64,000 nucleotides of DNA from Rozella allomycis CSF55 (lineage: Eukaryota). Of the stretch, positions 1 through 62,400 are shown in pieces. The notes under the pieces were generated by a model. The model did no database searches and had not been told where the DNA came from. It saw only the letters and a program-made list of their open reading frames with translations. Made by a program: the position numbers and the translations under genes. The DNA is taken from the NCBI GenBank assembly GCA_000442015.1, contig KE560971.1, forward strand, positions 1-64,000. Direction: 5' to 3'. Each line of letters begins with the position of its first letter. The stretch's first letter is position 1.

Positions 1-3000
1 GACAATGGATGACCAATGATATTAGCAACCAGATCAATAGACTCATCAACAACCACTTTGTCTGCCAATTTCTTCAAGACTCTATTGTAATAATCAGCCA
101 ATTGTTTATAAACAAGATTATTTAAACTTTCAATTTCACTTAGCTGATTTGAATTGTTTAAACCAAGAGCGATTATTAAAGCCTTTTCAGCAGCCAGTTT
201 GATAGGCATAGAACGATCTTTGACCAAAGGAAAAACAATGTTGACTAGATTTGATAGATTATGTGAAACTAGAGAATGATTGTGAATAGCTAATTGTTGA
301 ATAAAGTGGAGTGATAATTTTTTGACTGAAATGTTGTCTTTTGAGCATTGATCTAGTAAAAGATTGAAATGGTTGTTGAATTTGTTTAATTTAAGTAAAT
401 TGAATAGGCAATGCAGAGATAATTCAACTGTTTCAATATTTTGATCTTGCAAACCACTTTGAATCAACTCAGAAGCTACAGAAGAAGATAGAGAAGCCAA
501 TAGATTATCAATTTTATCATTATCATTACAATTATTTCCCGTGGAACATAAAATGATTGATAGAGAAGCTTCTAAATTAACTTGATTTAAGTAACTAAAA
601 GAATCCACATTTAACAATGATAAACAATCAGCAGCCAACAACTTGAATCTAGAATTAAAAGATTTAACAATAAAATCCAAAATAGATTGTTTCGTTTTAT
701 CAGAAAGATTAACAGAATTAGAATTTACCAAAATTTGATGCAAAGCCAATAGAAAGTATTCCAGATTTGAATTATTAGAGATTAGCAATTGATTTGAATT
801 TTGAATTAAATCTAAAACAAGAAGATCTAATTTTGGTTGTAGGAGGGCTAATTTGCCTAGAAGAAAGGCTGATTGTTTCTTTATTAGAGAATTATTTTCA
901 GTGAGAGATTTTGAAAATGTTCGTAGCAGTTGAGGCAGAAATGGTTTTAAACTTGAAATTGATTTTTCAAATAGAATGTAGAAAGTTATTAAACAAGATA
1001 ATTTTAATGAATCTGGAATTCTTTCAGCCATTGTTCTAATCAACGGGCCCACCACAAGAGTTGGATTAAACTTTGAAGCGGGGGTTGAAATACTTCCACT
1101 ATTAACACCTTTAGCATCTCCATTAGCACTTGAAACATTTCCACTATTAACATCGTTACCACTTGAAACATTTCCACTTGCTAGTAGAATAAGTTTACCA
1201 AGTGATTTGATGGAATAATCTTTAATCTCAATACTAGACCCACTCAACAGCCCAAATGTACAAATAGAAATCAAAGGCCCAGGATTCAACAACTCTAACC
1301 CAAAAATAGCCTCTTTATTATTAATATTTGAATAAATAATTGGAATATAAACCTCTAATTCAGATTTAGGAAACTTCGAGATTAGATTAAGAATATTTAA
1401 AGATTTGTTCATTGTTTCAGTAAAAGAAAGAAAATCAATTAATTTTGAATACCAAAAGAGTTTATCTTGAATTAAATTAAACTTTTCACATTCAACAAAA
1501 CATTTTAAAAGTAAACAAGTTGATTCAGAATCTTCTTTTAGATTTTCATGCATAAAATTTGTAATAAATGTTAAATCTTGTGAATCTAAACAATTTGATA
1601 TTATTGCTTTTAATACAAATTCTACAGATTCATCTTTGAATGAACAAAGAAATCTTAAAATTAAATCTAATCTTTTATAAATCATGTTCATTTTCATTTC
1701 TTTTAATATCAATCCAAGAATTAAAACTTTGTTTCTATCTTTTATTAAATATTCTGGAATTATTTGTTGCAAAAGAAGAAATGGTTTTATTTTAGCTATT
1801 TGACACAACGCCAACAAATTATGTGACGAAAGTAATCTATCTACTTGAGAATTAAGAGAAGTAGCATCTTTGAGAGTACCATCATCACCTTTTCCTTCAA
1901 CCTCATCACCTTTCACTTCAATTCCTTCACCTTTACCTTCCCTCTCAACCTTTTCAACCCCCTCATCACCTTCAACTAATTCACTCATCATCTTTTTAAT
2001 CATCTTATTAACACTCTTCTCATCAAACTCTGCAATAAACTCCAACGCCATCGCCGCCTTCTCCCTCACAATCTCACACTCATCCAACAACGCCTTGCCC
2101 ACACACTCACTCAACACATCCACAAACACGCCAATCTGGTTAACATTGCAATTCTTCAACACTTCATTCAACGCACACACAGCCCCTATCCTCTTCATCT
2201 CCACACCATCCAGATTATCCATTATAATTGGGATAATCTTTTCAGTTACAAAGTCACCCAACTTTAACACTAGCTCGCCAACTGTTGATGCTGCTATTTG
2301 CTGCTTTTCGAATGAGTTTGAGGAGAGAAGGTCGATCACAAGGGAAAGCGTTTCGTTCAAGATTCTCTTGATCATGCGTGGGGAATTGGAAACTGAATTC
2401 TTCCAGATTATCAATGAGGCTTGTCTGACACTCAAGTTTACATCGAATCTTGAAATAAATAATTGTGATAGAATTAAATTTCTCTTTTCTAGTCCAAATA
2501 TCTTTTCCAGCCATCCATCATTCAATGTTTCTATTTGAAATTAAAGAATATGAATTACCATTTCTTTCTATATTGATATTTGAGCTCACTTCTCCCCCTT
2601 CAACTCTATCAACTTCTCCCCCTTCAACTTCTCCTCCCACTTCACCTTCTTTCTTAACTCCTTTAACTCTCCTCTTAATACCCTGCTCAATAACCTCTCC
2701 AATCAACTCCACACAACTCAGCCTAACCCTCCAATTCGCATCAAACCCATTCTCCAGCAGCTCAGGCACCAGCCTCTCCACCACAATGCCAAAATACCTC
2801 TCCACAATCATCCTACCGAGTCTAATAGCCATCTCCCTAATACTCTCCACCTCATCGCCAATCCCACCAACAACAACACCAACCATATCAACAACAAACG
2901 GCTCAAACGAACTCTTAAACGTCACCGGCAAATACAACAGCAAACTCATGAACCCTTCCCGCACACTGCTAGACACATGACACGTCATTTTAATAAACGC

Positions 3001-6000
3001 CGGCAACATTTCCCTCAGCTTGTCGATACCCAGTCCATAGATAATCTCGGATAACGCTTGAGCAGCACCTAAGCGGTCGACATTCAGCTGCGATTCGTTT
3101 AGTATTTTTAAAAGCTGTGGAATCAAATCTGCAAAATGCTCTTCGCCCAGTTTGTTTATTAGAGAGCCGAATGCTTTTGCTGAAATGGAACGGACATCTG
3201 GATTTGGATCTGATAGCATCTCTTTCAAGTTTGGAACTATTTGCGGCAGGTACAAGACAAAATCATTCTTTTCAGTTAAAGTGCACATGTTGGATACGAT
3301 ATGCGCTGCCTTTTTCTTGATTTCAGCGCTTCGTTCTTTTAAACCTCGTTGGATGATTGGAATTAAGAGGGCTAGTGAAGGTGGGTCAATGTAGTGAATA
3401 AATGTTGTTTCCATTAGAGCTTTTAGTGATGTTTCAGTTTGGTTGTTTGGATCGCTTAAACCTTTTAATAGAATTGGGCCAAGGGTTTGTATTTCTGGGT
3501 TTCTTATAACTGAAGTAAAATTTTCTAATGCTTTCTTTGCTGCTTCTTGGACATTAATGTGTGAATCATTTAAAACGTTTGCTATTTCTGGGATTATAAT
3601 TGGAAGATTTATAGACAATTGTTTTGGTGCCAAGAACGCCATTTGACCTTTAATAAAGTTTAAATATTGCTATTTACCTAGAATAAAGTTAAAACTTTAT
3701 CATTTACCTAGAATAAAGTTTAAACATCATTATTTACCTAATAGTTCAACACTTGCTTTCTTTGATCTCCATTGAGACTCTTTTAAACCATTCAATAGAA
3801 ACGGTAGAATAATTTTAACACAATGAGAACTGAGATTACTCATGATAATTCTGGATGTTAATTGAGCAGTGTTTCTAACTTGAATATTAGAATCACCAAA
3901 AGCTAATAATAAATTTGTTAATATTTGTGAGATGAATGGCTCAAATAATCTACCAAGGGTTTTAGATAACATTTCATATGCTATTAATGCACCTTGTCTG
4001 TGTTCAGAGTTTTTACTTTCAATAGCCAATTTTAATTCATTTAAAACATTCAATTCTTTCAAACACGAAATACCTATTATACTTGTAAATAGTATAAATT
4101 ACCTAGTTTTAACATTCAAATCATTTAATTACCTAAACCTTTGACTATTGATGATATTCCGTATGCACAACCTCTCTTGATAAAATATTCTTGTTCATCT
4201 TTTAATTTGTTTAAAAGAAGAGATAAAAGATTTATAGATTCATTTTTAATATTCTTGACTAGGGGGATTAAACATTGACTAGCAGCAAATTGAACAGATT
4301 CAGAACTAGTATTTAAACAATCAGCTATCAATAGTAAAATATTATTTAATCGTTCATCTCCTGGATTTAAATTCTTTGAAACTGATCCCAACAATATAAC
4401 GATCCCCCTAGTGGCAGGTGATGAAGTAGGTGGAGTAGTGGCATTCTTAACGCTTGAAGCATTATTACTTGAGCCATTACTTCTTAACCCATTACTTTTT
4501 GGTTCACTCTCACCATTACTAGCAATGGTTAAAAGATTGTTGAATAGATTTAACAAGTCTCGCAGTGCTCGTTAACTGGACGGGGAGGTATTCTAATAAA
4601 TATNGATCTAGATGATTCTTTCCATGATACTCAATAATAGTCAAACCAGCATTCAACATTTCTTCAACAACTTTATCATTCTCATCATTAAAAGCATTTG
4701 GAACAAAATTAAAGAAATTCAAAATATTTTCAGAATCTAAAAATTCACTCGACAGTTTAATCGCTTCAGCTAAACAAATTCTCGCATTGAAATTCAAATC
4801 AATATTTTCACTTTTAATTTCCATTCCAAATTCATCCAATCTCTTTTCTTTCCTTGTCAATTCAAAATAAAATGAAATCAATTCATTCAAAATAAATTTC
4901 ATTCTTTCTGGATTCTCTTTAATTCCAACAGCAATTGATTTTGAACAACTTTTTCTTATCACTTCAATTTCATTGTTCATCAATTCTTTATAAACAAAAT
5001 TCTCATCAATTTCAAATTCATTCTTTATCCAAATCTCTCTTGCTATTCTACAATTATCTTTATCACTCTCATTCATCAACACAAACATCACCTCTGTAAT
5101 TCTCTTGTTAAATCTCAAATTAAACTTTTCTAATCCCAACAAGCAAATCTGTCTAACATATGAATTATCATTAAACAATCCATCAACCAAATGAAGTTGA
5201 AGTTGACGAGAGTTATCAAGTTGAAGAGAGTGATCATTGGAAAGAGAGGCATCATTCGAAAGAGAGGCATCATTGGAAAGAGAATTATCATTATCACCTT
5301 CAACATTACCACCTTCAACTCTACATTCAACTCTACTATCACCTTCACCCTCTCCCTTTCCATATCCTCCCTTTCCATCTCCCCTCTCCACTTCAGTAAT
5401 AAGGTCACATGACTTTAATATAATCTCTTTACACTCTTTAACAAATCTTGGCTCCTTTTTCATAACATCAATAATCAATTTAATAAACAAAGATCTCGGC
5501 AAACTCTCCTCCTTCATCAAACTCAAATTATTCAAACAAATTTCAATCAAACTATTCAAATACTTGAATTCATCTTTAATCATTTCAAACAAATAAACAT
5601 AAAATATAAAACAAACAACATCCATCTTTATCTCCTTTATCTCCTCCACAACAACTCTTATCAAATCTTCAACCCTAGATGCTAAATTCATCTCAAAGCC
5701 TTTCAGTTTCATCAAAATAATCAAAATAAATCTACAAACTCTTTTTATTTCTTCTTCTTTACTCAACTCGCAAAATAACATCAAACATTCTTTAACACTA
5801 ATAACATCCTTGTCAAATTTCATCAATTCTTTATAAAAATAATTCACATCCCTTTCAACCTCTGCATTTAAAATTGATTGCTTAATTAAATTCAAACAAA
5901 TTTCTTTTTCTAAATAAACTTTCTCAACTTTATCTTTAATTTGCTTCTCTTTCATCAATTGCTCTTTAATCAGTCTTTCTTCTTCTTTGCTCTTCTTCAT

Positions 6001-7571
6001 TTGCTTCATTTTTATTCTCTTTTCCCAATCTTCTTCATTTCCATCATTTTGTTGATTTCCTTCTTTAATACTACTTTCAAATGGCTCTTCTCCTTTATGC
6101 TTCCAAATCTTCTTTTCTATTTCTGAAATTTCAGGAATATTCTTTAATCTTTTTTTAACAAAATTTAAAACAATCTCATAAACTTCTCTTCTCTTTAAAA
6201 ATAATCCCAATGATTCGAAATAACAATCTCTTATAAATTCATTCTTATTAAATATTCCCTTTTCATTAAAAAACACTGGTTCAATCTGTTCATATCCTTT
6301 ATCTATTGACTCTACAATCAATTTAATGTATCTTCTAGTCTTTTCAAACAATATCCCACTGCTTGACACTACCATCAATCTCTCCTCAATCCCCTCACTC
6401 TTGTCAGAATTTATAATTGAAAATATTATTCTTGTCAATCTATCACTGAAACTTGATGTTCCAATGGTATTTTCATCAATGTATTTAATTAATTCTTGTC
6501 CACATTCAATCATCCCACAATTCAAATACAATTCAACTCTTCTTGGTTCAATAAACTTTCCCTGCTCCAAATTCAAAAACACTCTAAAGAATATCCCAAC
6601 AGTTTCCTTGCTAATCATCTTCTTCACATTCTCATCTTTCAAAATCTCTTCCAAACACTTCAACACCCTAAAATTACTCTTCTTTATTAAACTCTTGTCT
6701 TGAAAATACTCTTTTTTAAAACAATTGACATAAACCTGCTCTCCTTGTCCCACCAGTATCATAATTCCAATCGCAAACAATCCCTCAACAGAGCATCCCT
6801 TCATCACCAATTCTTTCAATCCCTTCAAATCAATCTTTTCAATTCCGATCATCCCTCTCTTCACCATCATAAACATCAGCTGCAGCATCCATCCCCTATA
6901 CCTCTCCTGCTTCATCAACCCAAAACTATCCACAAACTTGCCAACATCAACATCCCCCTCCCTCTTCCCAACAATCTCACTCAGTATCATAAACACCAGC
7001 CCAACAACCACATCATTCGTCTCTCGCCCAACCATCCCAATCAACCGGCCAAAATACTCCCAATCAACACCTCCCCTCCCATCCCGCACAACAACCATCG
7101 CAGCTTCAAGCACACTAATCTTCACATCAACTACACTCACACTCTTGCTCAAATACATCCCCAAAACACCCGCAAACACATCCTCTAAATTACCAGCGCG
7201 GCGCACAATAATCCCCAAATTTTCAACAGCCAAACGTCTCACTTCTACATTACTCGCCTTCAACAAGGACACATAGCTCTTCAAAAAGGATCCACCAACT
7301 TTGGTGCCTACTCGCACATGTTGCCATATACTCTTCACGTCTACTAACAAACAGGTAATATTCTTACAGTATAGACCAGTATCCGCATTACGCAACAACT
7401 GCTTTTCTAAAGAAGCTTGCAAAGTCTCATACTCAGAGTCGCGCAACGTACGGAAAAACGTCTTGAACGGTTTCTGTGTTAGAAAATACATTTATTTACT
7501 AGACTGTTGTATGGCTTGGTTATCAGATTTTGGACTAGAGATAGTCGCTCCTCTCTTGTGCCCTTGGACAT
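1..7571 (-). CDS. GCN1: GCN1 HEAT-repeat translational activator; multi-exon, 3' end runs off the window
   Basis: Spliced translation gives GCN1 motifs WRSKKASVELLG|QMAFLAPKQLS, FIHYIDPPSLALLIPIIQRGLKERS, DRLGAAQALSE and WRVRLSCVELIG. Probable start MSKGTREE at 7571. Interrupted by an N at 4604. Confidence 0.92.
3648..3737 (-). other. Compound intron: three abutting 30-nt GT..AG units (tandem repeat)
   Basis: Minus strand gtaaataatgatgtttaaactttattctag / gtaaatgataaagttttaactttattctag / gtaaatagcaatatttaaactttattaaag. Removing all 90 nt restores VELLG-QMAFLAP. Confidence 0.9.
4074..4132 (-). other. Compound intron: two abutting GT..AG units (30 + 29 nt)
   Basis: gtaattaaatgatttgaatgttaaaactag / gtaatttatactatttacaagtataatag. 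Removal restores VKGLG-ISCLKEL. Confidence 0.85.
4553..4603. repeat. Dispersed ~50-bp repeat next to an assembly N, possibly a mobile-element end
   Basis: acaagtctcgcagtgctcgttaa..ggacggggag..ttctaataa recurs at 45265-45312; both copies end at an N. Confidence 0.75.
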
Positions 7572-59441: not shown

Positions 59442-62400
59442 TTATTTTATTAACTGACCTTGACTTCCATTTTCCATTATACTTCGAGGTCCATTTTCAA
59501 TGCCTATTTCATCCAATGCAGTTCTAAATTTTACTTGATAATTTCTCTCGACTCGCTAACTTTTGTTTGCTACCATGTCTATTTTCATTAAAGTCTTGAA
59601 AATTGTATTCATCATTTGCTCTTGGAAGGAAGGCAGCCAGCAATTGAGTTGTGGGTTCTGCTTCGGGAATCCATTGATAATCTATTTTATAATTTGGTTT
59701 AACCTGTTTTAGTTGTCTTTCTATTGACGCTGCCATTTTTTCCGCTCTAGAAACCCTTATGGTCATAACCTTTAGAGATTTTTCGGCTTTATCAACCTCG
59801 ACTTCTTTCTTGGATAATTTTTGATTAACTTCGTTAAAATTTTTTTCGGTTAGTTTTAATTTATCTGTTAGCTCCTTAATGTGATGCCTAAAGACCTATT
59901 CGAGTGACTTATTAATGTTACTTGATTTTCATTGAGCAAATGATCTTTTTCTGCGATAAGTGTCTTATATTTATATTCCAATGATTGATAATCAAGTAAT
60001 CCCAGATTCAACGACTCGGATTCGATATTTGGAAATGTTTTTAATTACCTGGTAAATTTATCAAGGATGGATTAGAATGTTTTAGTGCCTTTCTATTGAT
60101 CAAGGATAAATTTATTTTCTCAAAGTCTGAATGGATTGTAGATTGTTTGTCTTGAAGAGCCGATATCCTTAGCTTTAGTTGATTATTTTCTATTTGAAGG
60201 TCATGTACTTGAGCTTTAGCTTTTAACATGATTTCTTTTGAGAGACGAAGCTTTTTTTCCATGCAATTCAAGTCTTTTTCCGATGTGTCGTTTTTATGAG
60301 TTTTAGATAGTCTTTTAATTTCAGCCTTAAGCATATTAACACTTGTCTATCAATAAATTAATAATTTAGCTACTATCATGTCAATTTGAAGTTTTTTCTT
60401 TTCTGCATCAGCCTCGATTAAGGATTTTTCCAATTCAATCTTTTAATAAATTAATTAACAAAAATACATTTTTATTTTGATATTCTTTCAATTTTGGTTC
60501 CATTCTTTAAAAATTCTTCATTTATTAAATTTTACCTTTTAATTTCTAATAAAAGTTGATTGATTTCATAATCTTTATTGTCGTTGGCCTTTTCAATTTC
60601 TTTTTGCTTAACTTTTGATTGCTCTTTAATTGTTGAATTTATGTTTAATTTTAGCTCTTAAACGGCAGCATGAAATTTACTTGAAGTTCAAAATTTTCAA
60701 CCTTCAATTTTTCAATTAATTTCTCGTTCTTGATTGAATTGTTTTGAGACTCGAGCCACATTTTTTTCAGTTTATCGTATTCTTCTTTTGCACGGTTAGA
60801 TTCCTTTTGCATTTTATCAAGTTCTACATTGAAAAGGTGCTTTATGTGATCCACATTAACACTGGATAGTTTGTCTTTTAATTTGTCAATTTCGTGATCC
60901 TTGAAATCTAATTGATGTGAAAGTTTTATTGTTTGTTCGTAAAGACTACTAAAATGATTATCCATGTCCTTGTATTGTCTACTCAATCTCTCATTTTCGC
61001 TCTCCAAATGAATCTATATCGAGATTAATCTATTTATACAATCTTATCTTTAAGTATCATCACTTCCTTGTTTGATAATATCATTTTCTCTGTAGCTTTA
61101 TTACAATTATCTCTTTCATTCAAAATCAACCTTTTATATACTTCCATTTGTATTACTTTTTCATTCTATTTACAATTTCTTTTTCAACTTCTTCTGCTGA
61201 TGAGTTAATAGCCTCATATCACTAAATATTTCTGATTACTTTTTGAATTTCATTGGCTCTGCTAAACTTGTATGTTGAATGGATTTGTTGAATAGAATCT
61301 TTTAATTCATCAATCGTGACTTGGCGTTGACCAATTTCACCTTCTTTTTTCCTGTCTCTTGTTTGATACTTTTCCAATTCCTTCATGATAACATTTTCAT
61401 TCTTAATTGATATTTCCTTTTCCTTTTCTAGAGTGTCATTTTGTTTCTTGATTTGAATTAATTCACTGTTTAATTCATTTATGTCTTTTTTCAATGTTTC
61501 ATTTTCCTCTTCAATTTGTTTATTTCTAAAATTTAAATCAACATTTTCCTGTTTATAATTTTGAATTTCAATTCTATTTTCGTTGATTTCAGATCTTTGA
61601 ATTTCCTTTTTAGATTTTACTTTTGTGTATTTAATGATTCCTTTAACTTGTTTACAGTGACGTCCCTGTTTCTCATTGCGAGTAATCCTTCCTCCCATTG
61701 CTTTACAACGCTATCATTCAATTTTTGCAATTGCTTTATTTCTATTTCAATATTGATTCAATTAGAAACCTTATCGTATTATAGTATACAATAAAAATAC
61801 CTTGAGTCAAATTGTCAACTACTACTTGCGCGGCTCTGGTTTCACCGATTTGAGCAGATTGCAAATTTAAAGCCTTTCTCTTTTGTTCCAAAATCTCATC
61901 ATTCGACAAAATCCACTTTACTCTTTCAAGTTTAATCTGAAGACTTTTCATTTCATTTTGCATCAACTTCTTCTGTTCTTCTATTTTATCTAAATCAAAT
62001 TTCATTTTCTCTTCAACACGTCTTTGCAATTTAATATCATATGAATATGCAATACTAAGATCCATCAAATCTTTATTTTTTCGCTGAAGAGTTTGCCATT
62101 CAGCCCGTTTCACAATTAATTCAGCAGCTAATTCCTAGAAATCTTGAATCACAGCATTACTTGATTGGTTTGATCAGCTACTTGTAATTCTTTCTCCAAA
62201 TCTTTAGAGTACTGCTTTGATGTTAACGAGTCTTGTGCTTCATGTTGCCACTTTTCTTTTCTGTCATAAAATACAAAGTCGATTTACAATTCGAAAAACG
62301 CATTTTGCATTGATTCTAGTTGCGACTTTGTCTTGTATAATGCAATTCCTAGTTCCTTTTTGTCATTCGCAACCAAATTCAAATCATGATCCTTATCGTC

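Follow-up and report, generated by a model that had tools for sequence, protein, structure and literature searches.

The GCN1 gene of Rozella allomycis CSF55, encoded on the minus strand of the 64,000-nt stretch of DNA analyzed here (the window), carries a 59-nt intron (4074..4132, minus strand) within which a splice acceptor directly abuts a splice donor. Does this intron consist of one unit or of two, in how many steps would it be removed, and what has kept its internal splice pair intact? The host gene was assigned from its best homologues (47-48% identity), fungal proteins named "translational activator of GCN4", and its exons match 7nrc_A GCN1 and GCN1/EF3 HEAT models.

Structure of the 59-nt GCN1 intron

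Ordinary introns of this genome were characterized in a 264-kb background set comprising the window and C500:1-200000. Confident intron calls from the first parse peaked at 26-30 nt (119/247), and from this peak 158 confident calls were chosen at 25-32 nt to serve as the single-intron set. These introns measure 26-32 nt, start with GTA in 96% of cases, rarely have G at -3 (1%; T/A in 90%), and on inspection by eye were without a branch-point or pyrimidine motif. Within the focal intron, TAG|GTAATT at 4105-4097 (minus strand) separates unit 1 (30 nt, GTAATT...CTAG, 4103..4132) from unit 2 (29 nt, GTAATT...ATAG, 4074..4102), both on the minus strand; each starts with GTAATT, ends with TAG and fits the single-intron template. 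The internal AG|GT junction (4101..4104, minus strand) is a candidate zero-length exon. The intron lies in phase 1 and interrupts a Gly codon, with AG closing the exon upstream (3' part at 4133..4349) and GT opening the exon downstream (3738..4073). The latter exon, supported by homologue alignment, itself ends in AG and separates the focal intron from a neighboring 90-nt phase-1 intron (3648..3737), which is composed of three 30-nt units with interiors 68-82% identical and is a visible tandem duplication; 3' of this three-unit intron lies an exon encoding HEAT repeats (2953..3647), also supported by homologue alignment. All of these features are on the minus strand.

The intron boundaries were assessed by alignment of the flanking exons to PDB chain 8i9x_LR (2898 aa, despite the file title "Ribosomal protein L19"), to which the upstream exon matches up to residue 1389 and the downstream exon from residue 1392; the downstream exon also matches 7nrc_A GCN1. 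Of 120 homologues tested, 117 cover the junction, and in all of these the spliced GCN1 model is gap-free to a distance of 8 aa from it; retention of unit 1, unit 2 or both introduces in-frame stops. Two DNA contigs, from runs X3 (3803-4513) and X5 (2882-4580), span the intron with 0 differences, although the assembly may itself derive from run X3. The RNA run X11 (80% likeness) yielded short partial matches only, all outside the focal intron, and is uninformative for this intron since it leaves it uncovered. Sequence, alignments, stops and contigs thus agree with the original prediction that the 59 nt divide into 30 + 29 at the internal TAG|GTAATT, and the upstream exon does end in AG in phase 1, as had been read from the sequence. 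The two units had further been called dissimilar, and this description held: the identity of their interiors is 0.52, a level reached by 27.5% of random single-intron pairs and by 39% of between-stack pairs, and homology between units 1 and 2 is undetectable by this measure. The focal intron is confirmed as two complete GT-AG mini-introns placed end to end.

The assembly around the intron has two further features. At 4553-4604, adjoining scaffold N and about 420 nt upstream of the focal intron, lies the end of a high-copy repeat within the GCN1 coding region; one contig of run X3 skips the repeat, at about half depth, and the repeat has 15 matches in the genome, several of them at contig ends, and it probably represents a heterozygous mobile-element insertion collapsed during assembly. 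Variant letters and indels in X3, at roughly one-third to half depth, cluster at 3670-3802, 5206-5367, 6141-6228 and 6660-6847; none falls within the focal intron and two fall within the three-unit intron, a pattern consistent with two divergent GCN1 alleles.

Stacked introns across the genome and constraint on their internal junctions

The genome (11,859,274 bases, 1059 contigs) was searched for further pairs of abutting units, with reversed patterns, which are not composition-matched nulls, as controls. With a strict two-unit pattern there were 34 matches (10 in the control), and a looser pattern with intact internal junctions gave 236 vs 6, the 236 being overlapping junctions and not independent events. 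By hand count, the best 100 of the 236 matches correspond to 54 stacks on 25 contigs, with up to 7 units each and clustered in few genes. Donors lie 27-31 nt from the following AG|GTAAWT in 43 of 85 matches, the 85 being 97 minus 12 copies of a 13-nt repeat. These 12 sites (e.g., C14:5564 and C850:17745) share a repeated 19-nt word with a 13-nt spacing from donor to AG|GT and are probably part of a dispersed repeat.

For quantitative comparisons, 38 motif-found chains lying between open frames were curated by eye; 5 were dropped as exon repeats or weak and 1 was trimmed, leaving 33 stacks with 110 units. Phase 1 accounts for 22/33 stacks vs 54/158 single introns. The focal intron is one diverged member of this genome-wide class. 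An assembly artefact, or an AG|GT that arose by chance within an ordinary 59-nt intron, could be suspected from the scaffold N and collapsed repeat lying upstream of it; two runs bridge the intron unchanged, such an internal junction occurs in 0.43% of random 59-mers with intron composition, and the genome-wide excess is 236 vs 6, so that this explanation is largely refuted and its probability negligible.

Several other observations were made during these searches. A two-unit stack (30 + 29) is present in the unselected background sample at C500:62960-63018 (+), and another 59-nt intron candidate in the window (61742-61800, minus strand) divides as 31 + 28 at AG|GTT, a rare donor here, with the frame kept only if both parts are removed. 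Units in the 33 stacks exceed single introns in length (mostly 29-30 nt, against a mode of 27; p 1e-11), and A at +4 is found in 94% of internal donors in stacks vs 66% of single introns; these differences may in part reflect ascertainment. Viral contigs hold at least 115 matches to the stack pattern, with lengths suggesting that many are coding repeats.

Constraint on the internal junctions was measured by counting matches in which one base of AG|GT was broken. Junctions broken at A, G, G and T numbered 1, 3, 3 and 8 vs 7, 14, 13 and 13 in the controls, for totals of 15 vs 47, against 236 intact; one of the 8 T-broken matches, C706:20468-20525, is a possible stack with a GC donor at its internal junction. 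In the 33 motif-selected stacks, positions -3 to -10 and +5 to +10 of adjacent units differ in 38-56% of comparisons, so that singly broken stacks should be common if AG|GT were neutral. A neutral decay of 10% per base would predict about 105 broken junctions, and 15 were counted. A positive control at the tolerant position +4 behaved differently, with 27 non-A matches vs 8, several of them on contigs with other stacks. G at -3 of the internal acceptor, the base that single introns also avoid, gave 0 matches. Since few junctions are broken, a change at +4 is tolerated and G at -3 is absent, internal junctions appear to obey the rules of working splice sites, and selection on the internal splice pairs, as read from their sequences, is well supported at the level of the class within this one genome. 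The original prediction had inferred selection on the splice pair from the focal intron; that part stands for the class (236 vs 6; 15 broken vs 47), and the focal intron alone does not carry it.

The favored explanation, which on these sequence patterns we consider likely, is that stacks are duplicated mini-introns with a zero-length exon between them that would be removed stepwise, in the focal case by two ordinary splicing reactions. The spliceosome would recognize an intron mainly by its ends, GTA and (T/A)AG, together with its length, and recognition of this kind would take one unit per step. If unit 1 were removed first, the donor of unit 2 would come to lie behind the AG of the exon; if unit 2 were removed first, unit 1 would still be intact, and the same mRNA would result from either order, both of which the focal sequence permits. 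A unit stranded by the loss of AG or GT could no longer be removed and would break the frame, and the junction would be kept for this reason.

Alternatively, removal in one step through the outer splice sites might be the main route, with splicing of single units as a side reaction and a half-broken junction trapping that side reaction in a fitness valley. The broken-junction counts would fit equally well if the side reaction were frequent enough: a singly broken junction may be harmful even under one-step removal, and the counts therefore show that units are recognized and leave removal of the whole compatible with them. Unstacked long introns would speak for such a route, and the ab initio parse of the 264 kb returned 57 long intron calls, of which 3 tile into units and 38 open or close with a normal unit and so look like merged calls. 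This parse, run with a flat length prior, is too noisy for judging unstacked long introns, and with 38/57 calls apparently merged their absence is not established. In loci chosen around stacks, by contrast, 11 of 18 long calls tile exactly; of the remaining 7, examined by eye, 6 have shifted boundaries at a stack or a single unit and 1 spans N. Stacks of 6-7 units, moreover, keep every junction intact. One-step removal as the main route is accordingly judged unlikely.

Proposed duplication and drift, and base composition, of the stacks

Relationships among units were estimated from the identity of their interiors in the 33 stacks. Median identity is 0.62 for adjacent units, 0.55 at distance 2 and 0.48 at distance 3, with a background of 0.46-0.50. 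Among 77 adjacent pairs, 36 exceed the 95th percentile of between-stack identity and 19 are at or below the between-stack median. With 36 of the 77 being near-copies, many stacks would seem to arise by duplication and then stay intact. The original prediction had set selection on the junction against duplication as alternatives, and these 36 pairs make that a false choice. Both flanks carry AG...GT in 16/33 stacks vs 3/158 single introns (p 1e-11), as they do at the focal intron. Such flanks fit a model in which short AG|GT direct repeats bound a duplicated segment one intron long; selection for a strong exonic context would yield the same flanks. Under the duplication model, one intron length would be tandemly duplicated at a site flanked by AG|GT, the short AG|GT direct repeat would turn the duplicate into a complete intron, and the interiors would drift afterwards with the junction retained.

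Exon sequence was also considered as a source of the units. Unit 1 and the start of the downstream exon agree in 18 of 23 aligned columns. Of 1002 GCN1 windows, 1% match or exceed this score; coming from one of 4 tests, the likeness is a weak hint. No overall likeness between units and flanking exons was found in the 33 stacks (p 0.14-0.28). A search of the whole genome for copies of unit 2 within 3 mismatches returned only unit 2 itself, and a mobile copy of it was rejected on this result; copies of unit 1 were covered by a weaker 701-nt DNA search. An introner-like element was likewise rejected, near-identical copies at unrelated sites being absent for unit 2 (up to 3 mismatches).

Unrelated introns might instead have come together recently, whether a foreign intron inserted at AG|GT (as an introner or by reverse splicing) or two introns met when the exon separating them was lost; in that case the junctions would be intact because they are young and not through selection, and removal would still be stepwise. 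The random-level identity of the focal units would be expected under this scenario, as would the 19/77 adjacent pairs at or below the between-stack median, and unit 2 contains a small hairpin (7 bp), which is not significant (z -1.3). The lack of a second genomic copy of unit 2 within 3 mismatches speaks against insertion of a foreign intron, and the smooth fall of identity with distance within stacks speaks against joining of unrelated units. No sequence is missing relative to homologues, which argues that no coding exon has been lost. Taken with these points, recent joining of unrelated introns is distinctly improbable as an account of the stacks.

No close relative was found among 77 candidates from a single-protein metagenome scan or among 80 loci from an alignment scan (36-54% identity). 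In the distant GCN1 loci, which are redundant, the focal site is intron-free in 58/58 scorable of the 80 examined, and the site of the three-unit intron is intron-free in 71/71 scorable. An intron-free focal site in distant GCN1 is expected if the intron was gained in this lineage.

Base composition adds a polarity to the longer stacks. Third codon positions are skewed towards G over C in genes with stacks (18 loci compared with 158 background frames, p 2e-6). This skew is greater upstream than downstream of stacks in 18/29 (p 0.002), and it extends to the single introns of stack loci (G 0.21, C 0.035). In stacks of at least 3 units, the first unit has G 0.20 and C 0.06 and the last unit shows the reverse, G 0.06 and C 0.18; two-unit stacks show little G-to-C polarity. 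Antisense and low-complexity frames contaminated the positional skew profile of background ORFs, which was therefore discarded. In GCN1 itself, the coding strand has a strong G-over-C skew at 2100-3000 and 4800-7400 (minus strand), up to 0.77, in regions that include low-complexity Gly/Glu-rich inserts, and the skew falls to about zero over both stacked introns. One candidate cause of a skew switch of this kind is damage to DNA in single-stranded form on either side of a break or pause site.

A G-rich 5' end and a C-rich 3' end in stacks of at least 3 units might also indicate a hairpin that pairs the outer splice sites for one-step removal. One stack does fold strongly (z -3.5 to -4.4), and 7/33 stacks have z at or below -1.6. 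The mean z over the 33 stacks is nonetheless -0.23 to -0.26 (p about 0.43), so that folding does not explain the polarity in this set; the focal intron, with z +0.6 to +0.9, folds no better than its shuffles, and a hairpin would leave the conserved junctions unexplained. This possibility is very improbable. The strongly folding stack (locus L004, C255 about 6254-6337) is unlike most stacks: its two leading units pair almost perfectly as a hairpin, whose loop contains the internal junction.

Returning to stepwise removal of duplicated mini-introns, a broader form of this explanation can be proposed, which we hold to be evenly balanced between right and wrong. In this form, a spliceosome limit of about 32 nt per step would quantize intron length, every longer intron would be a chain of whole mini-introns, and recursive splicing would be obligatory. 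Chains would grow by unit duplication at AG|GT in long, strongly G-over-C-skewed genes, and the same local mutational process would leave the polarity from G-rich to C-rich.

Comparison with known splicing systems and implications

Zero-length exons, or ratchet points, are described for recursive splicing in long Drosophila and vertebrate introns (PMC5126111; PMC8605326, in their passages on such sites). According to these passages, the acceptor abuts the donor (AG|GT) inside the intron and stepwise removal is proposed, as for the focal intron, and the junction is more conserved than its surroundings, as it is in Rozella stacks at class level in one genome. The animal introns described there are tens to hundreds of kb long and their sites are isolated, whereas Rozella stacks tile the whole intron with 26-32-nt units, show visible unit duplication and are without a polypyrimidine tract; at 59 nt, the focal intron is not long in the Drosophila or vertebrate sense and is long only relative to the 26-32-nt norm. 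Sharing the structural features, and the constraint seen for its class, the focal intron would appear to work like zero-length-exon recursive splicing.

Among fungi, zero-length-exon cases are described in parts of two preprints for Cryptococcus neoformans BOT1 (375 nt = 210 + 165; bioRxiv 10.1101/224170) and S. pombe SPNCRNA.445 (336 nt; bioRxiv 10.1101/226894). These are one or two cases per genome with units of hundreds of nt, and the parts concerned describe no tandem-copy origin; Rozella has 236 junction matches and stacks of 2-7 units, known here from DNA alone. Fungal stwintrons and Lipomyces complex introns consist of short U2 units removed in consecutive reactions (PMC7138796; PMC8469720, in the passages on their organization). 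A stwintron, as described there, has an outer intron with one of its splice signals split by an inner intron, and the order of removal is therefore fixed, whereas the focal units abut and each is complete, with intact ends before any splicing; a stwintron was ruled out on this basis. In further contrast to the stwintrons and Lipomyces introns of those passages, the focal stack is without terminal inverted repeats and unit 2 is without dispersed copies.

When tandem genomic duplication at an AGGT protosplice site gives rise to an intron, as set out in the relevant part of PMC3443670, the new intron has AG|GT at both ends. The focal intron likewise has AG|GT at both ends, as do 16/33 stacks, and the focal and three-unit sites are intron-free in distant GCN1. 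In the model of that part of the paper, one intron is made from exon sequence, whereas in Rozella the intron itself appears to have been duplicated again to form stacks, with no exon-derived signal detectable overall. No description of stacked minimal introns was found in the literature searched (main texts, with few subscription papers among them), nor, in the same literature, any paper combining "Rozella" with "recursive splicing"; stacked introns are unmentioned in the passages on Rozella allomycis in PMC8476143 and PMC6349667.

Most recursive splicing known so far concerns very long animal introns; yeasts have contributed one or two cases. If the explanation favored here is true, introns of 60-200 nt are chains of minimal introns and recursive splicing would be routine in one genome. 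Two questions would then become directly testable: by what means a spliceosome fixes the length of introns that have no branch-point or pyrimidine signal, and whether introns are created and lengthened by tandem duplication at AG|GT sites. Genes bearing stacks may be mis-annotated, and in diverged pairs such as the focal intron the junction would have outlasted the likeness of the units that it joins.
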